A DNA stretch of 64,000 nt from an uncultured virus (IMG/VR IMGVR_UViG_2775506815_000003). Its lineage: Duplodnaviria; Heunggongvirae; Uroviricota; Caudoviricetes. The notes under the pieces are model-generated. The model had not been told where the DNA came from. It worked only from the letters and a program-made list of their open reading frames with translations, and ran no database searches. This document shows positions 1-62,667 of the stretch, piece after piece. Each line of letters starts with the position of its first letter. Positions within the stretch are counted from its first letter, which is position 1. The DNA lies in IMG/VR virus record IMGVR_UViG_2775506815_000003, positions 1 to 64,000 of that record, one strand, 5' to 3'. The position numbers and the translations under genes are program-made.

Positions 1-1638
1 TTACTTTTTTCTAGAATCAGCTCCAAACATGACAATATTTATATCTTCTCCGTCCCATATGATTTTATCTACTACGGATCTTATTAAATTTCTTTTCTGA
101 ATTACATCTGAGGTATCTATCATATTAGCAAATTTAATTATTATATCATCAACGATATCTATATTATCTTCTTTAATATTATTAGATTCCCTTTTTTCTT
201 CTAATTCGAATAATCTTTCTTTTAAATTTGAATTCTTTTTATCCAGCTCATTAATTTGAACAATTATATATTTAGTAGCATTAGATTCTTGACCTTCTGA
301 TAAAGAACCTACTAAATTGGCTATGGCTTTATCATTATCATCTATATTGGCCTTTATTTCCTTTATTTCAGCGTCCAAACTGATTTTAGCACTACTTATA
401 CTAACCTTGTCCTTTTCTATCTTTCTGGAAAGGGTAGAGCCTTTATAGGATAGTTTTTTAATCTCATCTATGACAAGCTGGTCTAAATCATTACCTTTTA
501 TATTTTTTATATCACATTTTTCTCTTTTACTCTTTTCTTTCAGCTCACATATATAATAAAAAGCTTGAACACCGTCCTTATTAACACGTCCCATTTTTGG
601 TCGCATAAAACTACCACAATTACCGCACCTTAATATACCAGATAAAAGCGATTCTGAATTTTTAACTTTCCTGAAAGTTTTAGATTTATTCTTATTAATC
701 ATATTTTGCACCCTCACCCAATCTTTTCCTCTTATTATTCCTGGATGTTTGCCTACGGCTATAATCCATTCTGAGTTATCTCTTAGCCTATTTGTAGTAT
801 TTTTCTTTTGTACAGTCTTATTATATGCCATGATACCTTTTTTACCTGTAAACTTATTTGAATCAGCATATACCTCATAATCATTATCAATGAAGTAGTT
901 ATATGTATTTTCATCAGCTGTAGCATATACAGGATTAGTTAAAATAGATCTTAGTGAAAATCTAGTATAATTTTTGTTGTTTTTAGTTTTAATATTATTT
1001 TGTATACAAAATGTTTCTAACTGAGTTAATGAATCCAATTCTAAGAACTTCTCATATATTAGTTTCACAGTTTTTATCTCCTGAGCTATAGGAGTAAGCT
1101 TAAATAATTTTCTTTTTTTTGCATTATGATCTAGATAGACAATCTCCTGAGAATCGAAGCCAGTAGGAGTAGTTCCACCAAGCCATCTGCCAGTTTTGGC
1201 TAATTGCAGCATATTATCTCTAATCCTTTCTGCTATAGTCTCTCTTTCTAGTTGAGCAAATACACTGGCTATGTACATCATTGCACGACCCATAGGAGTG
1301 GATGTATCAAATTGTTCCTTAATAGATACAAAAGATATATCATTCTCATGAAGATCTTCTATAAGAGTAGAGAAGTCAGCTATGTTCCTACTGATTCTAT
1401 CCAGTCTATAGCATATTAATACATTAAATTTCTTAGCCTTAACATCACGCATCATAAGCTTAAACTGTGGTCTATCGGTATTACCACCTGAAAACCCTTC
1501 ATCTTCATATATGGTAATGTCATCATCAGTAGAATTAAAATGTCCATAAACATACTCTTTACATAATTGTATTTGATTTTCTATAGAATCACCACGAGTT
1601 GTGAATTTCGATTTACGAGAATAAATTGCTATTTTCAT
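1..1638 (-). CDS. Large serine recombinase (SpoIVCA-like integrase of element 1)
   Basis: AIYSRKS catalytic Ser, DEGFSGG, YRLDRISR, recombinase domain, LSGILRCGNCG zinc ribbon, coiled coil. Confidence 0.95.
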   Translation of the reverse strand: MKIAIYSRKSKFTTRGDSIENQIQLCKEYVYGHFNSTDDDITIYEDEGFSGGNTDRPQFKLMMRDVKAKKFNVLICYRLDRISRNIADFSTLIEDLHENDISFVSIKEQFDTSTPMGRAMMYIASVFAQLERETIAERIRDNMLQLAKTGRWLGGTTPTGFDSQEIVYLDHNAKKRKLFKLTPIAQEIKTVKLIYEKFLELDSLTQLETFCIQNNIKTKNNKNYTRFSLRSILTNPVYATADENTYNYFIDNDYEVYADSNKFTGKKGIMAYNKTVQKKNTTNRLRDNSEWIIAVGKHPGIIRGKDWVRVQNMINKNKSKTFRKVKNSESLLSGILRCGNCGSFMRPKMGRVNKDGVQAFYYICELKEKSKREKCDIKNIKGNDLDQLVIDEIKKLSYKGSTLSRKIEKDKVSISSAKISLDAEIKEIKANIDDNDKAIANLVGSLSEGQESNATKYIIVQINELDKKNSNLKERLFELEEKRESNNIKEDNIDIVDDIIIKFANMIDTSDVIQKRNLIRSVVDKIIWDGEDINIVMFGADSRKK

Positions 1639-2039: not shown

Positions 2040-2606
2040 GTGCTTAAAGATAAGGATATTAGGACAATTTTGATAAAAGAAATCACTAAATCAAATCGAG
2101 GTAACGATTATAGACTTGTAGAAGAACTAGCTGTATGCGATGGAGATGCAAGGGTTGATATTGCTTTAATAAATGGCAAATTATGCGGATATGAAATAAA
2201 AAGTGATAGAGATACCTTGGGAAGATTACCTAAACAAGTTAAAGCATATAATAGAACGTTCGATATCATGACTATTGTTGTTGGTGAAAAGTATAGAGAA
2301 ATGATAGAAGAAAAAGTTCCAAGCTGGTGGGGAATAAAAGTTGCCTACAAAGATAATAGTAATAAAGTATATATTGAAAATATTAGGCCTGCATCTTTTA
2401 ATGATGACGTTGATGCTCGTTCTGTTCTGGAATTATTGTGGAGAGATGAAATTTTAGAGTTGTTAAAAAATAAAGGAATAAGAGGGCTATCTAATAAGAA
2501 TAGAAGAATGCTAAGAGATATAGCCATTGAAACTATACCTCCTAGCGAGATAAAAGAATATACAAGAGAAATTTTAAAGATTAGAGAAGACTGGAGAGCT
2601 GATTAA
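2040..2606 (+). CDS. sce7726-family protein (PD-(D/E)XK-like)
   Basis: EELAV..ARVDIA..GYEIKSDRDTLGRL..Q motif. Confidence 0.75.
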   Translation: MLKDKDIRTILIKEITKSNRGNDYRLVEELAVCDGDARVDIALINGKLCGYEIKSDRDTLGRLPKQVKAYNRTFDIMTIVVGEKYREMIEEKVPSWWGIKVAYKDNSNKVYIENIRPASFNDDVDARSVLELLWRDEILELLKNKGIRGLSNKNRRMLRDIAIETIPPSEIKEYTREILKIREDWRAD

Positions 2607-3585
2607 CTACAAAAGTTATATGATGATTGGTCCCAACTTTTCTCCAAGTAGATAAATTTCCGCACTTTTCAATTCCTTTAGAACATCTAGTGAAAATATA
2701 GTTATCACCCCAGGAAAAATCTTGTCCACTAAAATCTTTGAGATTTATTAATTTTTGGCAAAGAGAAACTACATTTTCTACATCTAGGCCACCTTTTTTC
2801 GTGGAATCTCCTCTGATAACAATAAATGAATCATTAGTTGAGTACCTAATGTTAAAGGCTGGGCTCATTCCAGGAATATATTCAAAAAAGCTAGGGTGGT
2901 TAATGCAATAATCAGAGTATTTCAGCTTAATATTATATCGCTTTTCCAAATAAAGCAATGAACTCCACAGTTGGTAGTCATAACGGCTAATGTGATGAAT
3001 CTCATATTTTCCGAAAGAGCTTAATGTTTTAGGAAAAGCACTACTTGATAAAATAATATTTCTAAAAGATTGTATTTCAGGTATGTCTGGTAGTAAGGCT
3101 TTTGCAACAATCTTTTTTTCTCCAAAATTATTTTCGTTAATTTCTCTTAAATCTATTATTAAGTCAATGTTGTTATAGCCGAACTCATCCTTTAGTTCCA
3201 TCAAACTACTGTCTAAATCATCTAAATCATCGCTGGTTATTCTAATTGCTATACCATTTTTTGAGTAATTATTAGCCTCTTTTATTGCATCTTTATTATC
3301 TGACAAGAATACTACTGGAATTACATATTTGGGGTCACATTGGCTTAGCAAATCAAAATATATTTCTCCACTATTTTCTTCATAAACTTCTGGTAAAATA
3401 TCAAAATAAAAATATCTGTTCTTCCAATTATTTAAAGAATCTTTGAGCTTAGAAAAATTAAAATCGGGCGTTATTTCTATTAATGGAACTATTTTATCTT
3501 TTATAGAATCTTCCAGTTCTTTTAAAGCTCCTTGTTCTCCTTGTTTCCATTTAAGAATAGGAATATAAGTAAAATTTGTTTTCAT
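2581..3585 (-). CDS. Beta-family / sce7725-like protein
   Basis: YIPILKWKQGE N-terminus, YSDY, IRYS, FSWGD, WRKVGTNHH C-terminus. Confidence 0.75.
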   Translation of the reverse strand: MKTNFTYIPILKWKQGEQGALKELEDSIKDKIVPLIEITPDFNFSKLKDSLNNWKNRYFYFDILPEVYEENSGEIYFDLLSQCDPKYVIPVVFLSDNKDAIKEANNYSKNGIAIRITSDDLDDLDSSLMELKDEFGYNNIDLIIDLREINENNFGEKKIVAKALLPDIPEIQSFRNIILSSSAFPKTLSSFGKYEIHHISRYDYQLWSSLLYLEKRYNIKLKYSDYCINHPSFFEYIPGMSPAFNIRYSTNDSFIVIRGDSTKKGGLDVENVVSLCQKLINLKDFSGQDFSWGDNYIFTRCSKGIEKCGNLSTWRKVGTNHHITFVVNQLSSLL

Positions 3586-3720
3586 AGTAATCCCCCTTAA
3601 GAAAATAATTATAAGTAATAGTTGACAATATAAACGATAATTAAAAATTTAATATAAACATATTTAATCATCTCCTTAATTTGATTTACTTAATATATAA
3701 GAAAAGCAATGGAGATAAAA

Positions 3721-3736
3721 GCTACCCAAAGGTAGC
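3721..3736 (-). terminator. Hairpin terminator
   Basis: GCTACC-caaa-GGTAGC followed by T run on minus strand. Confidence 0.5.
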
Positions 3737-3737
3737 T

Positions 3738-4187
3738 TTATATCCCTAATGCTTCTTTAGACTTAGATCCAAGAATACCATCTACAGTAAGTTTGTTATC
3801 CTTTTGGAACTTTTTAAGAGCTTCCTTACTTTTCTTTCCCATGATTCCATCAGCTTTACCGCAGTCATAACCTAACTCATTAAGCTTTTCCTGAGCTTTC
3901 TTTATATCTTCAGATTTAGTAGAACTGGAGCTTTTCTTTGATGATGTAGTAGGTTTTTTAGTAGAAGTTTTACTACTATAAGGACAAACTCCGTCTTTAT
4001 GTAAGTGTGCAGTATTTCCACCACAGTGGTAGTGATAGCTACCTAATCCACTTTTATTCTTATTGTCCTTATGCCCACCGCTAGAATCTGTTCTACCTGG
4101 ATGACCTATAACAATAGTAGAACTAAGCGATAAAGCGACTGCTAGTCCTAATGAAGCAATCTTTTTTGATGAAAATTTCTTTTTCAT
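3738..4187 (-). CDS. Secreted YHYH-motif protein with peptidoglycan-binding domain
   Basis: Signal peptide, HPGRTD..GGH..YHYHCGG, C-terminal ADGIMG..FQKDNKLTVDG. Confidence 0.85.
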   Translation of the reverse strand: MKKKFSSKKIASLGLAVALSLSSTIVIGHPGRTDSSGGHKDNKNKSGLGSYHYHCGGNTAHLHKDGVCPYSSKTSTKKPTTSSKKSSSSTKSEDIKKAQEKLNELGYDCGKADGIMGKKSKEALKKFQKDNKLTVDGILGSKSKEALGI

Positions 4188-5905
4188 TTGAAATTCCTCC
4201 TTTGTATTTTAAATAATTTATTTGTTATCCATGAACCAAGTTTAAAAGAAACAATTGCTATAAAAAATAGTAAAAGAAGACCGATAAATGCATTATCTAC
4301 TTTTATTGCTATGAAAAGCGATAATACAGCCCACAAAAAGAATGATATTGTTATTTTTAAAATAGGAAATGATATATTTAATTTTTTTTCTGAAGTGAGA
4401 TTTGTTTTTGTATAGCTAAGATCGTTTATATAATCAAAATAATGTAAGGAACCTATATCTTCTTTATTAATTAATACCTTTCTCGGTTTACTACCTTCAT
4501 ATCCGCCTACAATGCCTCTATCTTCCATTTCATCAACAATTCTTGCTGCCCTTGCATATCCAATCTTTAGCTTTCTTTGCAACAGCGAAATAGAAGCCTG
4601 TCCTTCTTCTATTACTAGATAAATTGCTTTTGGCAATAATTCATCTACATCATAAATAATATTTTCAACTTCAACTTCGTTTTGAATGTTTTCTACAATA
4701 TTATTTTCATGTTTATTTATAAAATGGTTTACTACTTTTTTAATTTCTTCATTACTAATAAAAGCTCCTTGGATTCTTATTGGCTTTAATTCTTTCATAG
4801 AATAGAATAACATATCGCCTTCATTTAAAAGTTTTTCAGCTCCAGCTGTATCAAGTATTATTCTAGAATCGGATTGAGAAAATACCCTAAAAGATATCCT
4901 TGAAGGAAAGCTATTTTTAAAAACATTTGCGATAGAGGGTATTTGTGTAGTTACTATTAAATAAATTCCTGCAGCTCTTGCCATTTGTGCTAACCTACAA
5001 ATGCAATTTTCAATCTCTTGAGCAGATACCATCATCAAATCAGCTAATTCATCTATAATGATAACTATCTTGGACAACTTTTCTTCCTCATTATTTTTAA
5101 ATTTTTCATTATAGGAAGTTATATCCCTTACATTGTTTTTTGTAAATAGTTTATATCTATTTTCCATTTCAGCAATAGCCCAATTAAGAGCGGAAACAGC
5201 TTTTTTTGGTTCAGTAACTACTGGTATTAATAAGTTAGGGATTCCATTATAAATACTCAATTCAACTACTTTAGTATCTATAAGTAAAAGTTTTACATCA
5301 TCTTGAGTAGGTCTATATAAAATACTAGTTATTAAAGCATGAATACAAATGCTTTTTCCAGTTCCAGTTGATCCAGCTATAAGAAGATGTGGCATTTCAT
5401 CTATACTTTTAATAATTATTTTTCCATTAGTGCTTTTTCCTAATACTAGAGGTATTTCAAAATTAGTATTTTTATATTCATCAGAGTTTAATATATCATG
5501 TAAAAAAACTAATTTTCTATCATAATTTTCAGAGTTACATGTAGTATCTAATGATAGCGTTATCATTTTTATTAATATATCCCTGTCCCATAATTCAACA
5601 TTATTTGCTTCAGATAGTTCTATAGCATTGGGAGTAAAATAATTATTTGTAACTACCATACATTTATTAGCCCGATAATAATTTTTTGCACCAATAATTT
5701 CTTGTATGGCGGAAATGCCTACAGTATTGCTATATCTTTTGGCCTGGATAACTGTTCTATCCTTATCCTTTGAAATAATTAAGTCTGCTCCATAGTCATT
5801 AGAGGCTGGGGTAATTTCTACTTCATATCCTAAATTTTTAAAAAGATTAAATAAATAATTTTCAAATTCTATACCAGATAGATTATCTATACATAGTTCA
5901 TCCAT
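4184..5905 (-). CDS. Mrr-like endonuclease fused to FtsK/SpoIIIE ATPase, gamma domain and C-terminal TM helices
   Basis: EFE..DYGADL..IQAKRY; PHLLIAGSTGTGKS; IIIDELADLM; SISLLQRKLKIGYARAAR; hydrophobic tail. Confidence 0.85.
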   Translation of the reverse strand: MDELCIDNLSGIEFENYLFNLFKNLGYEVEITPASNDYGADLIISKDKDRTVIQAKRYSNTVGISAIQEIIGAKNYYRANKCMVVTNNYFTPNAIELSEANNVELWDRDILIKMITLSLDTTCNSENYDRKLVFLHDILNSDEYKNTNFEIPLVLGKSTNGKIIIKSIDEMPHLLIAGSTGTGKSICIHALITSILYRPTQDDVKLLLIDTKVVELSIYNGIPNLLIPVVTEPKKAVSALNWAIAEMENRYKLFTKNNVRDITSYNEKFKNNEEEKLSKIVIIIDELADLMMVSAQEIENCICRLAQMARAAGIYLIVTTQIPSIANVFKNSFPSRISFRVFSQSDSRIILDTAGAEKLLNEGDMLFYSMKELKPIRIQGAFISNEEIKKVVNHFINKHENNIVENIQNEVEVENIIYDVDELLPKAIYLVIEEGQASISLLQRKLKIGYARAARIVDEMEDRGIVGGYEGSKPRKVLINKEDIGSLHYFDYINDLSYTKTNLTSEKKLNISFPILKITISFFLWAVLSLFIAIKVDNAFIGLLLLFFIAIVSFKLGSWITNKLFKIQRRNFK

Positions 5906-6715: not shown

Positions 6716-7198
6716 TTAATTGCTTTTACTATTATTATCATTATTATTTAATAGTTCTTGTATTTTAATATGTTTGGCTATTATTTCAGCTAGTTCCTCA
6801 TATGTTTTGTTCTCGTAATTAAACCCTTTATTAATCATTACTTGTCTAAATTCATCTAAGGCTTTATATTCTTTTTGAAACTCTTTTTTCAGTTTTTCTT
6901 CTTGCTTGTAAGTATTTCTTATACTAGAGTTTTCTAAGTTTTTTTTGTTAAATTCTGATTCAATATCTTCATCTTTTATATATCCTGCAGCTTTCATAAA
7001 GTCTGTGTAAGTTACATTATTTTTAGCAGTACTAGCTAATCCTTTTAATATTTCTGGGGAAGGAGGATTATCCATTTTGTTATTTAGTAATTTAGATATA
7101 TAAGTTCTGTTAACTCCACTTAGTTTGGAGTATTCAGTAGTGTTTAAGTCCCCCATAGCCTGTAATAATAATTCTTTAAAAAGTTCTTTGTCAAACAT
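6716..7198 (-). CDS. CI-like XRE HTH repressor
   Basis: N-terminal HTH (SGVNRTYISKLLN..PSPEILKGLA), divergent from cro; no S24 peptidase domain. Confidence 0.8.
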   Translation of the reverse strand: MFDKELFKELLLQAMGDLNTTEYSKLSGVNRTYISKLLNNKMDNPPSPEILKGLASTAKNNVTYTDFMKAAGYIKDEDIESEFNKKNLENSSIRNTYKQEEKLKKEFQKEYKALDEFRQVMINKGFNYENKTYEELAEIIAKHIKIQELLNNNDNNSKSN

Positions 7199-7232
7199 AT
7201 AAACCCCTCCTAAATAGTATTTTATACATAAG

Positions 7233-7347
7233 CGTGAAAATATTCAACACATCACTACGTAAAATCTTTTCACGCAATTCCGTGAAAATAGTTGACAGCA
7301 TTAAAATCGAATGATATTATGTATATACAGGGTGAAAAAAGTTAACA
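7233..7347. promoter_or_regulatory. Lysis/lysogeny switch: 17-bp operators and early promoter
   Basis: cGTGAAAA.....ACa-type boxes at 7233, 7258 (inverted), 7281, 7331; TTGACA(7292)-17-TATTAT(7315). Confidence 0.8.
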
Positions 7348-37563: not shown

Positions 37564-38082
37564 ATGCTTACTTATGTTGTCAATTGGGATGAATTTGCTG
37601 AAGAATTAGGAAAAGGCATAAAAATAGATAATGTAAATATAGATACATCTGGAGTTGAATCAATACTTACAACTTATTTTCCTGAAATAATAGATTTATT
37701 AAAAGATATTAGAGATGAACTTTATAAAATGAGGACTAAGTATGAAAACTACAATCAAAAGATTAAAGGCTTTTATAATAGAACTATAAATAAAGAGAAA
37801 AATATAATAGAGTGGATACCTGAAAAACATACTTTTTTAACTGATGTATCTTTCTCACATTCTAATATAGAAGGAATAGATGATTATTTTAACTTATCAG
37901 TAGAAAAAGATAATGTAGAATTAATATTCCAGCAGATATATTTAAAAGATTCATTGCAGCATAAACATTTTAATAAATTCTTTCCAGTGCCTGCAGGAAT
38001 GAAAATTAAGTTGACACACTTTAATCCAAGTCTTACTGAAAAATGTGTTTGGTATGACTTAGAATATTTAGAACACAAGTAG
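37564..38082 (+). CDS. Tail-region protein, paralogue of N-terminus of 38381 ORF
   Basis: YVVNWDE..KHFN.F.PVPAG..VWYDLEY. Confidence 0.65.
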   Translation: MLTYVVNWDEFAEELGKGIKIDNVNIDTSGVESILTTYFPEIIDLLKDIRDELYKMRTKYENYNQKIKGFYNRTINKEKNIIEWIPEKHTFLTDVSFSHSNIEGIDDYFNLSVEKDNVELIFQQIYLKDSLQHKHFNKFFPVPAGMKIKLTHFNPSLTEKCVWYDLEYLEHK

Positions 38083-55127: not shown

Positions 55128-56159
55128 ATGGAAAGTATAAAAGTATTATCATTGTTTTCAGGAATAGGAGCATTTGAAAAGGCATTAACAAATTTAGACA
55201 TTAACTATGAAATAGTAAATTATTGCGAAATAGATAAGTATGCAAGTCATGCTTATAGCGTGATACACGCTGTAAGTGAAGATTTAAATTTAAAAGATAT
55301 CACTAAGATAGATATAGGATGTCTACCTTATTGTGATTTGATAACCCATGGATCGCCTTGTCAAGATTTCTCTGTATCGGGAGAAAATAAAGGTGGAGAT
55401 GAGGGAAGTAATACAAGATCAAGTTTAATGTGGAATACTGTAAGCATAGTAAAACACATTAGACCTCGATATGTGGTGTGGGAGAATGTAAAAAATGTAC
55501 TATCTAAGACACATGAACATAATTTTGATAAATATATTAATACTCTTAGAAAACTAGGCTATAACAATTATTATAAAGTATTAAATGCTAAAGATTTTAA
55601 CATACCCCAAAATAGGGAACGTATATTTGTAGTGTCTGTTCGGAATGATGTTAAGATATCAGATACTTGGATAGAAGATATAAATACTAAGGAACTGAGT
55701 ATGTGCTTAAAAGATATAATAGAACCTATAGAAATGGTTCCAGAAAAATATTATTTAAGTGAGAGTGTAACTAGTAAGTTAATATATAGACAAAATACTA
55801 CGGCCAAGAGTGGAATTACAATAGTAGGAGATTTAAATAATAGTGAACTAAAAATGAATAAACGCATATTTTCAACATTAGGCATATGTTCTACTATCCT
55901 TACCACTAATCCACCTAAAATATATATAGAAACTCCTACTGATACTGGATATAAAATCAGAAAGCTAATGCCAGTAGAGTGTTGGCGGTTGATGGGTTTC
56001 AGTGATAAGGATTATTGGAGGGTAAAGGAGACACTAGAGAAAACATTTTATAAAGGGAAAGATAGGACAGACAGTCAAATGTATAAAATGGCAGGAAATT
56101 CCATAGTGGTAAATGTATTAGAGTCTATATTTAAAAGTTTATTAATAGACCAGGATTAA
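55128..56159 (+). CDS. Orphan C5-cytosine DNA methyltransferase
   Basis: FSGIG, GSPCQDFS, ENV, QNRER, GNSI. Confidence 0.93.
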   Translation: MESIKVLSLFSGIGAFEKALTNLDINYEIVNYCEIDKYASHAYSVIHAVSEDLNLKDITKIDIGCLPYCDLITHGSPCQDFSVSGENKGGDEGSNTRSSLMWNTVSIVKHIRPRYVVWENVKNVLSKTHEHNFDKYINTLRKLGYNNYYKVLNAKDFNIPQNRERIFVVSVRNDVKISDTWIEDINTKELSMCLKDIIEPIEMVPEKYYLSESVTSKLIYRQNTTAKSGITIVGDLNNSELKMNKRIFSTLGICSTILTTNPPKIYIETPTDTGYKIRKLMPVECWRLMGFSDKDYWRVKETLEKTFYKGKDRTDSQMYKMAGNSIVVNVLESIFKSLLIDQD

Positions 56160-56175
56160 GTTCCTGGTCTTTTTT
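56146..56175 (+). terminator. Intrinsic terminator
   Basis: AGACCAGGA/TCCTGGTCT plus T run. Confidence 0.75.
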
Positions 56176-56348: not shown

Positions 56349-56834
56349 TTAAAAGATATTTTTATAAATTTCATAAAAATGAGAAGAATCATCTAATAAA
56401 TGACGAATATTTTTGTAATTTTGCCTTGCCGGAGGAGATTCTTCCTTCTCCCATCTAGAAATAGTTTTTCTATGAACATTTAATAAATCTCCTAATTTCT
56501 TTTGGGTTAAATTCAAATTCATTCTTATACTTATAATTTTATTACCATAATCACTACTAATAAAATTAAAATAATCATCATATACAATTGAAGGTTTTAC
56601 TTTAAGGGCTATACAAATTTTATTTATAATATCTATAGAATGCTCTACTAAATTATTTTCATATCTAATTATAGTAGCTCTATCTAAATTGGATTTAGTG
56701 GCTAATTCTTCTTGAGTAAAATTATTAAGTAGTCTATAATATTTGATACGAGAGCCTATAGTAGATAAATCAGAAATACCCTTTAATAAATTTTGATTGT
56801 GATTAAATGTTTCCGTAGTGATACTATTGCCAAT
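56349..56834 (-). CDS. Start-less double XRE-HTH reading frame running into the att site
   Basis: IGSRIKYYRLLNNFTQEELA..DRATIIRYE and LTQKKLG..HRKTISRWE; no ATG/GTG/TTG before first HTH. Confidence 0.75.
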   Translation of the reverse strand: MGNSITTETFNHNQNLLKGISDLSTIGSRIKYYRLLNNFTQEELATKSNLDRATIIRYENNLVEHSIDIINKICIALKVKPSIVYDDYFNFISSDYGNKIISIRMNLNLTQKKLGDLLNVHRKTISRWEKEESPPARQNYKNIRHLLDDSSHFYEIYKNIF

Positions 56835-56852
56835 GAAATATTGATGACTATA
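56814..56852. other. attR-like site of element 1 (crossover GA at 56835-56836)
   Basis: AATGA core; TAGTGAT/ATGACTA inverted arms 12 and 7 nt from centre. Confidence 0.65.
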
Positions 56853-56924
56853 AGGGCTAATAAAAAATCCAAAATAGAGGTATCATTACAAGAGCCTATA
56901 GGAGTAGATAAAGAAGGCAATGAA
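56832..56924 (+). CDS. sigK: Internal fragment of pro-sigmaK (split gene segment)
   Basis: NEILMTIRANKKSKIEVSLQEPIGVDKEGNE matches SigK region 2.4-3 (PIGxDKEGNE; SigE has PLNIDWDGNE); similarity stops at both AATGA. Confidence 0.9.
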
Positions 56925-56946
56925 TTACCCTTAACGGTTTATCTAT
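56904..56946. other. attL-like site of element 2 (crossover GA at 56922-56923)
   Basis: AAT-GA-ATT core; TAGATAAA/TTTATCTA arms 9 and 14 nt from centre. Confidence 0.75.
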
Positions 56947-56989
56947 CTTCAAGGGTACATATTGAAAAATACATAAGTATAGGGTTTGT

Positions 56990-58537
56990 CTATTTAGGCA
57001 GCTTTGGAAACAAAGTTAGAGTAAATTGGTCATTTCTTTGCTCTTTTTCTTTTTCATATACGGCAGAATCTAATACAGACTTAAGTAGTTTATTTTTCCT
57101 TTCTGGATCATCAGTCTTAGGGTATAGGTCCAATACCTTTTTTACCTTAGGAATTATATTTCGTTGAGCATCAATTCTTTTTTCTTCATTTTTTATATTT
57201 TTAGAAGTATTCTCTATGTTGAATTTAGTGTCATCAATCCTTTGAGCTAATAACTGTGACCTTTCTAAATAAGTATTTACATCATAAATTCCTCTTTCAA
57301 GTAAATCGTGTAAATTGTTTTTCTGCTTTTCTAATTCTTCTAATTCATTTTTTAGTCTGCTTAGGGAAAGTTTATGCATTCTTAAAGTATTGTTTGCTTT
57401 AGATTTATTTTCCTTGTCTTCTACATTGTCCCATTCAGCTTTATATTCTTCTAGCCATTCCTCTAGTCCTTTGAGAAGTCTTTGTTCTACAAACTTAAAC
57501 TTAGAACTTTTATTGTTACAACTAGTGTTATAACAGACTATATGAGGGTCTATATTGTTGGTATATGGTCTATACACCATAGAAGAACCACATTTTGAAC
57601 AAATGATAATACCAGCCAAAGGATTAGTTATTTTAGTTTTATATGGCACATGGCTTCTCTTTTTAAGGATTTCTTGAGCTTTATCAAATATATCATTACT
57701 TATTAATGGTTCATGTTTACCTTTTACACTTATCCATTCTTCACGGGGTAAACTTTTTACTTCTTTTATTTGTTCAGGATTATCAGATTTTTTATATACT
57801 TTCTTTCTCCATTGAATCTTTCCAACATATACTTCATTCTTAATGATATTTAGGACCAAGTGACTGGACCAGTTTTTTCCCGTGTATGTTTTATACCCTA
57901 GCTCGTTCAATTTATTAGCAATTTTACCGCCGCCCATGTTGTGGTTTGCATATAAATCAAATATCATTTTAACAATAGGTGCTTGTTCTGGATGTGGAGT
58001 TAGAGTTCTGGTTTTCCCTTCACAGACGATTTCATATCCAAAGGGAGGTAATGGTCCTAAAAAGTTTCCATCTTCTATAGAACGAACTCTGCCACGTTGT
58101 AAACGTCTATTTATTATTTTTAATTCCTTCCTAGCCATAAAAGCTTCAAACTCAGAATATTCTTCGTCAAATTCATCTTGAAGGTCATAAGTTTTTCTAG
58201 GAGTAATAATTTTTGTGTTAGATTCTTTGAAAGTTTCTAGTATTAAACCTTGCTCCTGCATATTGCCACGACCTAATCTATCCATGTCCATTACTAGAAC
58301 TGCATCGTATTCTTTATTCTTGACTTCTTTTAGTAATTCAAGCATTTCAGGTCTATGAACTAAACTCTCCCCAGAAACTATTTCTTCACGAATCCTTAAT
58401 ATATTAAGGCCTTTCTCCTTGGCCACTTTAAGCAATATTTTTTTATGTTTAGCTAAAGTTTCACCTTCACCATACTTTTCAGCTTCTTCATCAGCCCTAG
58501 ACTTACGAAGATACATGCAAATACGATCCATAGTCAT
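56990..58537 (-). CDS. Large serine recombinase of element 2
   Basis: MYLRKSR, EEIVSGE, DMDRLGRG, LAGIIICSKCG, coiled coil; intact 515 aa. Confidence 0.95.
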   Translation of the reverse strand: MTMDRICMYLRKSRADEEAEKYGEGETLAKHKKILLKVAKEKGLNILRIREEIVSGESLVHRPEMLELLKEVKNKEYDAVLVMDMDRLGRGNMQEQGLILETFKESNTKIITPRKTYDLQDEFDEEYSEFEAFMARKELKIINRRLQRGRVRSIEDGNFLGPLPPFGYEIVCEGKTRTLTPHPEQAPIVKMIFDLYANHNMGGGKIANKLNELGYKTYTGKNWSSHLVLNIIKNEVYVGKIQWRKKVYKKSDNPEQIKEVKSLPREEWISVKGKHEPLISNDIFDKAQEILKKRSHVPYKTKITNPLAGIIICSKCGSSMVYRPYTNNIDPHIVCYNTSCNNKSSKFKFVEQRLLKGLEEWLEEYKAEWDNVEDKENKSKANNTLRMHKLSLSRLKNELEELEKQKNNLHDLLERGIYDVNTYLERSQLLAQRIDDTKFNIENTSKNIKNEEKRIDAQRNIIPKVKKVLDLYPKTDDPERKNKLLKSVLDSAVYEKEKEQRNDQFTLTLFPKLPK

Positions 58538-59404: not shown

Positions 59405-60662
59405 CTATGCCACAGAAATATCCGTATCTTTTATAATACCATTAGAGATTAATAGTTTTATAGCTTGATTAAGGGCTTTCTCTTTTTGTTTATTCATTAA
59501 TTCTTGTGGCATATCAATTTTATATAGATCAGAAGGATTCCATACTTCCTCTGTTACAAACATATTATAAATAGCAGTTAGTATCATCCTCGCTATAACG
59601 ATAATTGCTCTCTTTTTTCCTCTCCTTTTGTAAATGCATTCATATTTATTTTTGTAGTAAGGAGATTTGTCCGATTTAACGGCAGTATGGGCAACTTGTA
59701 CCAATGCTGGTTTGAGGTAAACTCCAGCACGTGTAATTCGAACAGATTTCTTCTTACCAGCAGATTCATTGTTGCCTGGTGTTAAACCAACCCGGCAACA
59801 CAAACGCTTAGAGCTGGAAAATTGAGACATACCAATACCAATCTCAGAAATAATAGTGATAGCTGAGTCCCTTTTGACCCCGGGAATGGTACATAAAATA
59901 TTTACATGATTTTCATAGGGCATAATCATCTTATTTAAATTTTCATCAATCTCTGCAATTGATGAAGTGACATAATTAAGATGTGATCTAACCATTAATA
60001 TGCGTTCTTTTTGTTCTTGTGTCATTTGGTAACCTTCAATAGATTCAATTACTAGATCTGCTTTTTTCTTTAAGCTTTTTTGTAAAAGTGAAGTACAATA
60101 GTCTGGGTTAAATGAATCTGAAGAAATTAGATAGTCTGTGATGGAAGTGGCAGATTTGCCAAACATGTCGGAAACGACAGCATCAAAGGCTACATTACCA
60201 ACAGTGAAAGCATTTTGAAATCTATTTTTTTCACTACTTCTACAAGAAACAAGTTTTGAACGATGACGAGTATATTCACGAAGAATACTAATTGGCTTAC
60301 TGGGGATATAAACTTCCAGATACTAAACCTAAACGAAACAGATCACCAATCCATTTAGAATCTTTGACATCATCCTTATTACCTTTTATTGCTTTAACCC
60401 ATTTAGGGTTAGCAATGGTTACGTTGATAGTGTCCTCTAAAATGTTAAAAACAGGTATCCAATACTTTCCTGTAGATTCCATGTATACATCATAGCAGTT
60501 GTTATCAATAAGCCATTGCTTAAATTGTAAGATGGAATTATTAAAAGTAGAGAATCTCTTTTTTGAATAATGTGGGGTAATCCCCTGTGAAATGATGATT
60601 GTGGCAACGAGAAAAGTTTTATGCACATCGACACCACAACAAATAGGATAAACAACTTTCAT
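59405..60662 (-). pseudogene. IS110-family transposase, frameshifted near 60300
   Basis: GVDVHK, MESTG.YW, K.D..D; TIPGV, GLTP..ESAG; one-base shift joins the two ORFs. Confidence 0.9.
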
Positions 60663-61529: not shown

Positions 61530-61804
61530 ATGACCAGGAAACGTTATGATGAAGATTTTAAAAGACAGTTAGTAAAGATCTATAACCAAGGAAATCACAG
61601 CTATAGAAGCCTTGCTGATGAATATGGTGTAGCTGCCCCTACTATCAGAACATGGGTAATGAGATATAATAATTCCCAGTCTTTTAATATAGAAGAAAAT
61701 AGAACTGAAGAAGATAGAGAATTAATAGAGCTTAGAAAGAAAGTAAAACAACTGGAAATGGAGAATGATATCTTAAAGCAGGCAGCACTACTACTAGGCA
61801 AAAA

Positions 61805-61808
<4 letters not shown>
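61530..61808 (+). CDS. IS3 OrfA
   Basis: [27 protein letters not shown]. Confidence 0.85.

Positions 61809-62667
<859 letters not shown>

Follow-up and report, generated by a model that had tools for sequence, protein, structure and literature searches.

Introduction

Prophages that reside in sporulation genes must leave the mother-cell chromosome without necessarily killing the cell. In integration-dependent immunity, integration by a tyrosine integrase removes the 3′ end of the repressor gene, and the shortened protein is the active, stable form found in the lysogen. IS3-family transposases and dnaX represent a different kind of control, in which -1 frameshifting takes place at A_AAA_AAG with a stem-loop a few bases downstream. 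In skin of B. subtilis, skinCd of C. difficile and SPbeta/spsM, a sporulation gene is split by a prophage or the remnant of one and then rejoined by a large serine recombinase (passages of PMC5025042 and PMC5499854). For Tn916, Tn4451/Tn4453 and ICEs, genes depend for their expression on the joint formed upon circularization (passages of PMC13023037). Here we analyzed a minus-strand open frame encoding two HTH domains at the right end of a prophage in sigK. We put the probability at roughly 0.7 that, as its sequence and that of its relatives suggest, this frame is a genuine phage gene split by attP, whose regulator would be made only while the phage is not integrated.

Results

Two elements interrupt sigK

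In the window (the whole 64,000-nt stretch of IMG/VR record IMGVR_UViG_2775506815_000003 that was analyzed), sigK lies in three pieces corresponding to profile positions 14-115, 106-151 and 138-226. Element A is a complete-looking prophage of 56.9 kb, and element B is a second sigK insertion of 26.5 kb, extending from about 56925 to about 83,430 (window numbering, past the window end). Each carries its own large serine recombinase, with some 90 bp between the two elements, and their flanks match the continuous sigK of a genome of the same genus (G006). The features considered here are the following:

1..1638, minus strand: large serine recombinase (int) of element A, 545 aa, with Resolvase, Recombinase and Zn_ribbon_recom domains; stop codon TAA at 3-1
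6716-7198: separate CI-like gene
56147..56170, plus strand: GC-rich hairpin separating the HTH gene from the convergent C5-methylase gene, with a terminator score for the plus strand only
56349..56834, minus strand: double-HTH gene body (core codon ATT, 160 codons and stop), with two XRE/HTH_3 domains
56805..56831, no strand assigned: P′ arm of attP, whose outer 12 nt at 56805-56816 (ACGGAAACATTT, minus strand) are an inverted repeat of the P arm
56832..56835, no strand assigned: attR core AATG of element A, common to attL and attB, with the crossover in or beside it
56835..56885, minus strand: host-derived continuation of the open frame (antisense sigK), ending at the in-frame TGA 56883-56885, with no start codon inside
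56836..56924, plus strand: sigK middle fragment, about 29 codons between elements A and B
56990..58537, minus strand: large serine recombinase of element B

The attL copy of the AATG core lies 28-31 nt left of window position 1, and the attB copy was found in the intact sigK of a same-genus genome. An imperfect inverted repeat with 11-nt perfect outer arms surrounds the core, and the recombinase gene stands at the element end. The outer 12 nt of the P′ arm encode T-E-T-F in the HTH frame and are invariant in all six sequences compared. The source genome assembly contained no attP or attB junction contigs. When sequencing runs were sampled by sequence words, only two metagenome runs matched, with 6% of words, and no RNA run did.

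A conserved double-HTH frame lacks a start codon in the prophage

The open frame extends on the minus strand from 56882 to a TAA at 56349-56351, giving 177 codons (translation of 56349-56990). It is preceded by an in-frame TGA at 56883-56885, and its bases 56836-56882 are antisense to sigK. Its first ATG, GTG or TTG is at 56522, after the first HTH, where the ORF listing gives an ORF of 57 aa; about 120 codons, including the whole first HTH, are thus without a canonical start. No Shine-Dalgarno-like motif was seen by eye before any in-frame near-cognate codon between 56882 and 56750. The preliminary description had reported about 160 clean minus-strand codons with two XRE HTHs, a frame open through attR to a stop near 56883, and no standard start or ribosome binding site before the first HTH. 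Our observations agree with it on all three points, and the domain matches and structural model given below bear out the two HTHs. Promoter-like matches were no commoner than in shuffles, and in a pattern scan the minus strand showed no terminator-like site, either from int to the window edge or upstream of the HTH body. The genome has a G+C content of 31%, in which the 177 codons of the frame stay open, and its assembly holds no paralogue of the gene.

We found 31 homologues of the double-HTH protein (132-172 aa, E ≤ 0.001), which indicates that the frame is not a chance opening. Their alignment has 10 invariant and 24 nearly invariant columns, with the second HTH no better conserved than the first. 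Pfam HTH_3 (PF01381) matches two stretches, one of them residues 46-98 of the 177-aa frame, with 74 bits against a cut-off of 23 (E 9.4e-21). The AlphaFold2 model (pLDDT 87, pTM 0.73) consists of two helical XRE-type domains, each with the five-helix lambda-repressor-like fold, and the single domains superpose on SinR, C.AhdI, C.BclI and ClgR with an rmsd of 0.8-2.2 Å. In Foldseek, each half gave target-normalised TM scores of 0.73-0.91 (rmsd 0.8-2.2 Å over about 60 residues), the best matches being single XRE domains of SinR, C-proteins, ClgR and ImmR; no structural match was found for the whole chain (best E 4e-3). Single-domain identity to C.Esp1396I variants reached 40%.

A role as controller (C-protein) of a restriction-modification system was considered for the 39-40% single-domain identity and the neighboring C5-methylase gene. 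It was rejected, since the two genes are convergent, which is not the arrangement of controller genes, and since in relatives the HTH gene travels with int/attP and not with the methylase. A search for repeats near int, the CI/Cro region and the HTH gene found operator-like CGTGAAAAT only between the CI-like and Cro-like genes, and nothing ties CGTGAAAAT or other repeats to the double-HTH protein.

Joining the prophage ends restores a complete gene

We rebuilt attP in silico from the record sequence left of window position 1 and the prophage right end. An ATG overlaps the int stop codon (TAATG; window position 1 and the two bases left of the window) and a second lies 6 nt beyond the first; this second ATG and the P arm are located 5-31 nt left of the window. 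Both ATGs are in frame with the HTH body across the AATG core. The rebuilt ORF encodes 169 aa from the second ATG (169-171 codons overall), with the crossover after codon 9 (or 11), and attP thus lies inside the regulator coding sequence. As the start codon is found at the opposite end of the prophage, beside the integrase gene, the gene is complete only in the excised circle.

These findings bear on several points of the preliminary description. It had placed the missing 5′ end in the DNA just downstream of the integrase gene, which is where the in-frame ATGs are, and had proposed to look in attP for an in-frame start, integrase coupling and a ribosome binding site. The first was found in this genome and in every paired relative described below, and the overlap with the int stop fits the second; only L104 has more than a weak Shine-Dalgarno motif ahead of the attP ATG. 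The idea that one recombination rebuilds host sigK on one strand and a phage regulator on the other holds for the regulator ORF in rebuilt attP but not for sigK as a whole: with the gene in three pieces, excision of element A would join only pieces 1 and 2, and element B must leave too.

The same split is found in relatives

A complete in-frame ORF was recovered from the rebuilt attP of all eight prophages whose two ends could be paired. Their integrases are 55-82% identical to that of element A, and their ORFs, of 156-170 aa, begin ATG TTT CCN, with the int stop anywhere from a 1-nt overlap to 23 nt upstream of the ATG. Two metagenomic contigs are natural attP forms with an intact gene (L069, integrase 79% identical; L070, 51%). 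The integrated form of the L069 phage is also available (L068), and there the identical protein segment has no canonical start. Eight database proteins begin with the attP-form N-terminus. The integrase/HTH arrangement recurs in many genera of Tissierellia and Clostridia, which indicates that it is under selection and not an accident of a single genome. Among deposited phages, tblastn with the HTH protein returned only a distant immR match in a Sphingobium phage, indicating that no named phage carries the double-HTH family. A scan of IMG/VR gave two close matches (L009 and L010), both at the cut end of predicted prophages, and a scan with the fusion protein P0063, described below, gave none.

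The preliminary description would have been contradicted by homologues starting at a non-canonical codon inside the element, and part of the family does have a start there. Of 16 related attR ends, seven have no element-side start and six, our own prophage included, have no canonical start at all; nine carry an internal ATG, GTG or TTG. Likewise, seven homologues in the database have their N-terminus in the P′ arm as M-E-T-F, at a site that reads ACG in element A, and for 23 the N-terminus is at the internal position or beyond it. The headless state in the prophage is therefore not universal, many relatives could also express the gene from the prophage, and the element A copy might have lost its start.

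These internal starts speak for expression from the integrated prophage as well, by way of a non-canonical start (ACG in the P′ arm, or ATT/ATA) or, for the second HTH only, from the ATG at 56522; the att-spanning frame would then be incidental. The ACG of element A is one base from ATG, and read-through from the element B integrase gene could, judging from gene order, supply a transcript. However, no Shine-Dalgarno-like motif was seen by eye before any candidate codon of element A, nor before the internal ATG of five loci, and six of the 16 independent prophage ends have an intact, conserved ORF without any canonical start. Were translation to begin at 56522, the 57-aa product would be missing the first HTH, whose conservation equals that of the second. 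In addition, the five codons between the P′ arm and the internal Met position, upstream of where such translation would begin, show substitution of the coding type, with an in-frame pN/pS of 0.19, compared with 0.85 and 0.97 when the frame is shifted (six sequences, 15 non-independent pairs), and the linker varies by whole codons (21, 22 or 23). We consider both expression from the prophage and an incidental frame unlikely. The conservation must be read with one caution, as the ATG and the T-E-T-F codons lie within arms that the integrase must bind, so that their conservation and fixed spacing would be expected even without translation.

The absence from element A of either internal start codon of the relatives could also mean that a one-time regulator gene lost its start and persists in this prophage as a functionless, decaying relic. 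Its loss from small elements fits such a view: among int-bearing small sigK elements of relatives, L101 lacks the HTH body and L102 keeps only its first 39 codons. A relic would not, however, be expected to keep 177 codons open at this G+C content, to retain the invariant and nearly invariant positions of the alignment, to show a pN/pS of 0.39 in the HTH body (from the same pairs), or to have an intact, in-frame ATG on the attP side in an element that otherwise looks complete. We regard this explanation as very improbable.

L101 and L102 also show that int-bearing elements can persist in sigK without the double-HTH protein, which bears on a possible role as a recombination directionality factor or another factor needed for excision of sigK elements. 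The constant position of the gene at the att site of sigK-targeting elements, its fusion to the integrase in two relatives, and, in four relatives whose orientation is opposite, its location immediately downstream of the 5′ half of sigK, possibly within reach of sigK transcription, are all what one would expect of such a factor. Yet element A and five other prophage ends have no canonical start for it before excision, an attP-only fusion acting in this way would inhibit integration, and the two small elements with int in sigK lack all or most of the gene. We saw no similarity of the protein to known directionality factors, its best structural matches being single XRE domains. This role therefore appears quite unlikely to us, and a split phage gene completed in the circle remains the preferred reading.

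The end of int carries a candidate frameshift signal

4..10, minus strand: heptamer A_AAA_AAG, candidate -1 frameshift site, in the zero-frame register of int and directly before its stop

The position of this heptamer suggests a variant of the split-gene reading, in which the phage would chiefly make, instead of a free 19-kDa regulator, an integrase of about 716 aa to which a -1 frameshift adds the double HTH. We hold this to be possible, if short of probable. Twelve of 13 int 3′ ends have an in-register A_AAA_AAG/A heptamer; in these the HTH lies in the -1 frame relative to int, and this frame stays open across the spacer, whose length of 8, 17, 20 or 26 nt is in every case 2 mod 3. The sole exception, L101, is the mini-element that has neither the HTH gene nor the heptamer. 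The zero-frame stop directly follows the heptamer in five of these 12 ends. Since the sequences are related, however, only about three independent spacer changes support the conservation of the frame, and since an ATG is always present, coupled initiation explains the data equally well.

Among sequences with an 8-nt spacer, folding covered five (our own, L079, L083, L080 and L069; L102 has the same spacer and was outside the folded set). In all five, the attP arms form a predicted hairpin that begins 6 nt beyond the heptamer, and it takes this position in the attP form only. The predicted RNA hairpin of L069 attP has a free energy of -27.8 kcal/mol (z -8.0), while in element A the values are -21.6 (z -4.4) for rebuilt attP and -17.9 (z -1.65) for attL. 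As the hairpin and the HTH codons are both confined to attP, the long isoform could come only from circular DNA, and the prophage would make the plain integrase. On the other hand, such a hairpin is an automatic by-product of any palindromic attP, and in the longer-spacer class it lies 14-20 nt from the heptamer or a local hairpin is present in attL too.

Natural fusions also speak for the frameshift. An exhaustive homologue search identified two in-frame integrase and double-HTH fusions, P0063 (716 aa, identical on 15 contigs, with the linker length of element A) and P0057 (736 aa); a word-based search for longer, fused homologues returned only an unrelated protein of 287 aa. In L052, a single TAG is all that separates int from the HTH ORF, the two being in one frame. 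The integrases of Clostridium phage HM T and Terrisporobacter phage TPELB_ph1 likewise finish in two or three lysines, encoded by a run of A. In HM T, an A9 run is the place where int, at its end, is overlapped in the +1 frame by a start-less and unannotated HTH ORF located at the record end; this is again in line with recoding. In TPELB_ph1, however, a -1 shift cannot reach the downstream gene, and the lysine tail common to both integrases suggests that the heptamer may be an inherited feature of the protein and not a recoding signal.

Discussion

The split of the double-HTH gene, its in-frame start, its conservation, the natural attP contigs and the natural fusions are established in silico. 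What appears most likely from these sequences is that circular phage DNA is the sole source of the product, which would arise from a cistron coupled to int or as a frameshift extension of the integrase. We infer from the same data how the gene would be transcribed and translated, which DNA it might target and what its biological role may be. In circular phage DNA, the integrase gene, attP and the double-HTH gene would follow one another on one strand. The P arm, right behind the int stop, would supply the ATG and the other opening codons, 9 (or 11) in all, and the remaining 160 would come from the far side of the crossover. When the phage integrates into sigK at AATG, the start codon would stay at attL and a promoterless, start-less HTH body would end up at attR, at a distance of some 56.9 kb. 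The ORF of 169-171 codons would be rebuilt upon excision or in the circle formed after infection. It would be transcribed together with int. For its translation, ribosomes might re-initiate in coupling with the int stop, or they might shift to the -1 frame at A_AAA_AAG and so add two HTH domains to the integrase. The product would be a DNA-binding protein and, in effect, a sensor of the excised state. Our guess is that it controls the int/lysogeny module or the fate of the excised circle.

More doubtful is the idea that the att site itself acts as a translational switch, with the P/P′ hairpin in the mRNA driving the -1 frameshift. Integration would then remove both the hairpin partner and the HTH codons, one recombination would mend the host sporulation gene on one strand and the phage gene on the other, and there would be two different integrases, one for the free and one for the integrated phage. 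If the frameshift were true, it would be, to our knowledge, the first known case of a recombination site serving as a state-dependent recoding signal, and it would offer a natural blueprint for using serine integrases to make gene expression integration-gated. Whichever mode of translation applies, an attP-only regulator or integrase isoform would be a direct physical read-out of excision and of integration not yet completed. These loci are also relevant to annotation, as gene callers skip or shorten start-less ORFs at prophage ends, as in Clostridium phage HM T.

What is new here is the -1 frame of the HTH relative to int with an in-register heptamer (12 of 13 ends), the attP hairpin 6 nt downstream in the folded 8-nt-spacer sequences, and the in-frame fusions in two relatives. 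Each half of the protein matches the five-helix domain of XRE/Cro-CI-type regulators (SinR, restriction-modification C-proteins, ClgR, ImmR). Here, one chain holds two of these domains and would therefore act as a built-in pseudo-dimer. As in IS3 elements and dnaX, the same heptamer is in register, with a predicted hairpin a few bases downstream in the folded 8-nt-spacer sequences, and the candidate shift would join an HTH module to a recombinase. In IS3 elements, however, the signal is a permanent one and the HTH module precedes it; in element A the module follows downstream, and recombination would be needed to bring about both the hairpin and the ORF behind it.

Element A resembles skin, skinCd and SPbeta/spsM in that a sporulation gene is interrupted and a large serine recombinase is found at the element end. 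It differs in that sigK holds two independent elements about 90 bp apart. It also differs from these accounts, which concern the rebuilding of the host gene, in the reciprocal phage gene on the excised circle, of which the passages of PMC5025042 make no mention. In the passages on Tn916, Tn4451/Tn4453 and ICEs (PMC13023037), the joint supplies or connects a promoter, whereas in element A the coding sequence itself spans the joint. In our searches of openly accessible literature, we found no description of a serine-integrase phage gene whose start is cut from its body by attP. A further parallel is integration-dependent immunity in the mycobacteriophages BPs, Brujita and Charlie (PMC4557955), where attP likewise lies inside a regulator gene whose product reports the integrated or free state. 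Unlike those phages, element A uses a large serine recombinase in place of a tyrosine integrase, and it loses the 5′ end of the gene together with the start codon, so that the prophage copy is predicted to be silent.

Two large serine recombinase elements in sigK

The window corresponds to C14:378964-442963 of a 3.57-Mb genome with ~31% G+C. The sigK profile TIGR02846 matched three separate plus-strand pieces, which means that sigK has been cut twice, by a prophage (element A) and by a second element (element B) that begins only ~90 bp away from it.

Features of the interrupted sigK region (window coordinates)
ends 18 nt left of window, plus strand: sigK piece 1, TIGR02846 positions 14-115
~30 nt left of position 1 to 56835: element A, prophage, ~56.86 kb
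1638-1, minus strand: large serine recombinase of element A (the integrase)
56817-56954, plus strand: sigK piece 2, TIGR02846 positions 106-151
56832-56835: element A core AATG, from comparison with the intact sigK of G006
56919-56924: element B core AATGAA, from the same comparison
~56925 to ~83,430: element B (L111), ~26.5 kb, second sigK-intervening element
58537-56990, minus strand: large serine recombinase of element B
59405-60662, 61530-62226: IS110- and IS3-type transposase fragments of element B
~19.5 kb past window end, plus strand: sigK piece 3, TIGR02846 positions 138-226

In G006, a genome of the same genus, sigK (L092) is uninterrupted and consists of our left flank, middle piece and right flank. 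Among 26 genomes searched (25 relatives and our own), sigK scored above the family cut-off in 14 and was split at the identical codon in several further ones. The two-element layout is shared by L048, from a Marinisporobacter genome, and L054, where an integrase 61-65% identical to integrase B adjoins a short sigK middle piece. Element A looks like a complete siphovirus-type prophage, with a CI-like/Cro-like region, recombination and replication genes, both terminase subunits, and portal, capsid, tail, holin and endolysin genes. The rebuilt attP of element B is a near-perfect palindrome around its core, and no start-less gene was found at its right end.

Two further regions of the prophage were recorded. 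Between the CI-like gene and the integrase (2581-5905, minus strand) lie three genes that may be prophage-borne defence or moron genes, encoding a 573-aa protein with Mrr_cat restriction-endonuclease, FtsK/SpoIIIE ATPase and FtsK-gamma domains, a PG_binding_1 protein and a 'Beta protein' (PF14350). The interval that separates the CI-like gene (6716-7198, minus strand) from the first gene reading rightward contains, at 7231-7347, four direct or inverted repeats of a CGTGAAAAT-type motif; these are likely operators of the lysis-lysogeny switch.

A start-less HTH gene is completed in silico by joining the prophage ends

At the right end of the prophage, a minus-strand open frame of 177 codons runs from 56882 to a TAA at 56349-56351 and is preceded by a TGA at 56883-56885. 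HTH_3 matched two stretches of it (74 bits against a cut-off of 23), and an AlphaFold2 model built from an alignment of 32 sequences (pLDDT 87, pTM 0.73) has two helical domains of XRE type, with an N-terminal helix that is weakly predicted. Each domain matched SinR, restriction-modification controller proteins, ClgR and ImmR in Foldseek searches with the predicted structure, which gave no whole-chain match. The earliest ATG, GTG or TTG of the frame is at 56522 and would yield an ORF of just 57 aa, so that ~120 codons, including the entire first HTH, have no canonical start. Translation, Pfam and AlphaFold2 thus bear out the preliminary description of a ~160-codon double-HTH frame, open to a stop near 56883 and lacking a standard start before the first HTH. 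At 56750-56780, where the first HTH begins (L-S-T-I-G-S-R-I-K), the DNA is similar to the antisense of the sigK codons for S-L-Q-E-P-I-G-V-D at 56890-56915, with two blocks of 10-11 identical bases and a 2-nt indel; this may reflect chance or an old duplication. In a decayed copy (L058) the two resembling stretches are directly adjacent.

The preliminary description had predicted that excision would supply the missing 5′ end from the integrase side. On the integrase strand of attL, the integrase tail R-K-K is followed by a TAA stop overlapped by an ATG (TAATG); a second ATG lies 6 nt beyond the first, and TTT CCG and six further codons then lead to the core codon ATT. The same core codon stands in attR, followed by the HTH body. 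Joining the two in silico at the core gave one continuous reading frame, 169 aa long from the second ATG and 171 aa from the first, in which attL encodes the N-terminus M-E-M-F-P-Q-C-D-Y-S-I and attR continues G-N-S-I-T-T-E-T-F. The left-arm ATG TTT CCG and right-arm CGG AAA CAT constitute the two perfect 11-nt inverted repeats of attP.

The prediction therefore held, with two in-frame ATGs at or after the integrase stop, and it held beyond our own sequence. For seven relatives the other prophage end was taken from the same genome, and attP was rebuilt for all eight pairs, ours included. Each contains a full-length ORF (156-170 aa) that opens with ATG TTT CCN, and the integrase stop lies anywhere from a 1-nt overlap with this ATG to 23 nt upstream. 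A natural attP form was found in a metagenome contig (L069), which reads integrase (79% identical to ours), stop, two bases, ATG TTT CCG and the complete gene; L068, from a related sample and with an identical protein segment, is integrated and has no canonical start.

Distribution of the gene and of its start codons

A search of 5.8 billion proteins returned 31 homologues of 132-172 aa. About one quarter of those aligned start M-F-P, which is the attP form, while the remainder start at an internal Met, at M-E-T-F or with antisense-sigK residues. A scan of 185,579 species genomes returned 24 loci, of which we analyzed 20 (L044-L063, E ~1e-20 or better). In 12, including the decayed L058 and L049, which matched by its sigK 3′ piece only and whose junction was read directly, the HTH gene meets antisense sigK 3′ sequence at the codon where ours does. 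In three, of opposite orientation, the sigK 5′ half immediately precedes the gene and lies on its strand; one (L052) has it directly behind an integrase, and four end at a contig edge. The 11 metagenome loci comprise four integrated copies (L072 and L073 being identical), two attP forms (L069, L070), one in the opposite orientation, two with an unassigned upstream region and two truncated.

We compared 16 integrated ends of our orientation. Seven have no ATG, GTG or TTG from the core to the first HTH, and six of these (ours, L050, L054, L068, L071, L072) lack one over the whole frame back to the last in-frame stop; five have an internal ATG, and four GTG or TTG only. By eye, no SD-like motif precedes the internal ATG in five carrier sequences (drawn from four integrated ends, the integrase-adjacent L052 and the attP contig L070, with L048 and L059 left out). 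The start-less prophage copy is therefore real and recurrent: our own and five others have no canonical start, although nine of the 16 ends do contain an internal one. The chief reservation about a conserved "excision switch" is that not every family member is start-less.

Several loci depart from the usual arrangement. In L056, L060, L061 and L076, where the gene and the adjoining sigK 5′ half lie on one strand, transcription from the sigK promoter would enter the gene. L056 obtains an in-frame GTG from the sigK Arg-Cys codons in a shifted frame, and from their protein sequences we infer that the N-termini of database proteins P0072 and P0077 fit such an origin. Two sigK elements of 2.6 kb (L101 in G017) and 6.2 kb (L102 in G014), in genomes of the same family, keep the integrase and look like skin-like remnants of our prophage's family; L101 has lost the HTH gene, and L102 keeps only its first 39 codons, the part needed as P′ arm. 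One complete genome (CP118523.1; L055, L058, L105) has an intact sigK and two extra copies of sigK 3′ fragment, attR and HTH gene, and one MAG (L053, L108) combines the attR form with an intact sigK; population heterogeneity or phages with an acquired sigK 3′ part are possible sources. The integrase-HTH pair of L052, in an Anaerosolibacter genome, lies away from sigK and has a left arm unlike ATG TTT CC, and a second integrase of the family in that genome (L104) lies at sigK, its arm ATG preceded by a strong SD (AGGAGG).

Evidence on translation across the att site

The arm codons are invariant in DNA (12/12 nt in six sequences), which is uninformative on translation because it is expected for an integrase binding site. 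Over the five codons past the arm, upstream of the internal-Met position, pN/pS was 0.19 in the HTH frame versus 0.85 and 0.97 in the shifted frames, and it was 0.39 in the HTH body, values based on a small sample of six sequences (15 non-independent pairs). The linker between arm and HTH measures 21, 22 or 23 codons, every indel is a whole codon, and no stop codon occurs in the linker of any compared sequence. The strongest indication of translation comes from two predicted fusions, P0063 (716 aa) and P0057 (736 aa), found in an exhaustive search of 1.84 billion representatives, in which Resolvase, Recombinase and Zn_ribbon_recom domains are followed by two HTH_3 domains. Residues 24-560 of P0063 align to residues 1-539 of our integrase (43% identity, E 5e-156) and residues 592-716 to residues 22-147 of our HTH protein (39% identity, E 8e-31), with a linker equal in length to our att-encoded stretch. 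P0063 is identical on 15 contigs (longest 37.5 kb) and is thus not a sequencing error. In L052, integrase and HTH ORF share a frame and are separated by a single TAG.

A -1 frameshift at the integrase end would offer another route: from attP only, it would give an integrase extended by both HTH domains and similar in size to P0063. Among 13 integrase 3′ ends carrying the ATG TTT CC arm, 12 have an A_AAA_AAG heptamer (A_AAA_AAA in L070) in the X_XXY_YYZ register of the integrase, have the HTH gene in the -1 frame, and keep that frame open from heptamer to ATG across a spacer of 8, 17, 20 or 26 nt (all 2 mod 3); the relatives are phylogenetically related, so these and the other counts overstate independence. 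A zero-frame stop immediately follows the heptamer in five of the 12, and the exception, L101, has no heptamer and its arm is in frame 0. In -1 frameshift signals of the dnaX/IS3 type, A_AAA_AAG is followed at 5-9 nt by a stem-loop. As RNA, the attP palindrome forms a hairpin starting 6 nt past the heptamer, both in the natural attP of L069 (-27.8 kcal/mol, z -8.0; 0/200 shuffles as stable) and in our rebuilt attP (-21.6 kcal/mol, z -4.4, versus -17.9 kcal/mol and z -1.65 for attL; mononucleotide shuffles). However, any palindromic attP inherently has such a hairpin; it lies further from the heptamer where spacers are longer, and L081 forms a local hairpin in attL as well. An A-run for K-K(-K) also ends the related integrases of phages HM T and TPELB_ph1, the -1 frame closing at once in the latter, and the ATG is always there, allowing ordinary coupled initiation. 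We consider the frameshift possible, though less likely than not.

HTH ORFs also lie beside the integrases of these phages, each 44% identical to ours. In Clostridium phage HM T (KU517658.1; L112, L113), a single-HTH ORF that lacks annotation and has at least 99 codons (37738-38037 of the record, minus strand) crosses the circular-record junction and overlaps the integrase 3′ end in the +1 frame at an A9 run; no ATG, GTG or TTG precedes its HTH, and it looks like a second, unrelated integrase-linked start-less HTH gene. In Terrisporobacter phage TPELB_ph1 (PP197244.1; L109, 4085-4458) a 103-aa single-HTH ORF follows 62 nt after the integrase, its ATG between perfect 12-nt inverted repeats that are probably attP; this gene, too, would be split by integration if the crossover lies downstream of the ATG.

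Possible role and comparison with known systems

All conclusions on the HTH gene rest on sequence analysis, and our own assembly showed no excision event in the form of attP or attB junction contigs. Having two XRE domains in one chain, the modeled protein presumably binds DNA site-specifically without requiring a dimer partner. Across genome and metagenome loci the gene travels with the integrase and attP rather than with neighbouring cargo, it is dispensable for persistence of small integrase-bearing sigK elements (L101, L102), six of the 16 prophages have no canonical start route to the protein before excision, and the fusions indicate that the integrase tolerates its domains at the C-terminus, or that selection has favoured them there. 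Together these points argue against a directionality factor, a role we disfavour, and the sequence evidence favours action in the free circle. There the protein may exert feedback control on the integrase/lysogeny transcription unit, on whose strand its gene lies, downstream of the CI-like gene and the integrase; we hold this to be possible, at well short of even odds. The remaining weight is divided between helping or controlling attP x attB integration and determining what becomes of the circle after its excision in the mother cell.

By analogy, the nearest principle is the integration-dependent immunity of mycobacteriophages, where attP likewise lies inside a regulator gene, there the repressor; three defining features differ, namely the integrase type, the gene end that is lost and the active state. 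The nearest functional parallel is circularisation-dependent expression in Tn916, Tn4451 and ICEs, in which the joint bears a promoter or a read-through transcript (PMC13023037), whereas here it spans a reading frame. Descriptions of skin, skinCd and SPbeta (PMC5025042, PMC5499854) concern the host gene. A full-text search of literature outside subscription journals turned up no serine-integrase phage gene whose start codon lies across attP. Compared with known att-dependent systems, what appears new in the HTH gene is a start codon placed beyond attP in a serine-integrase system.
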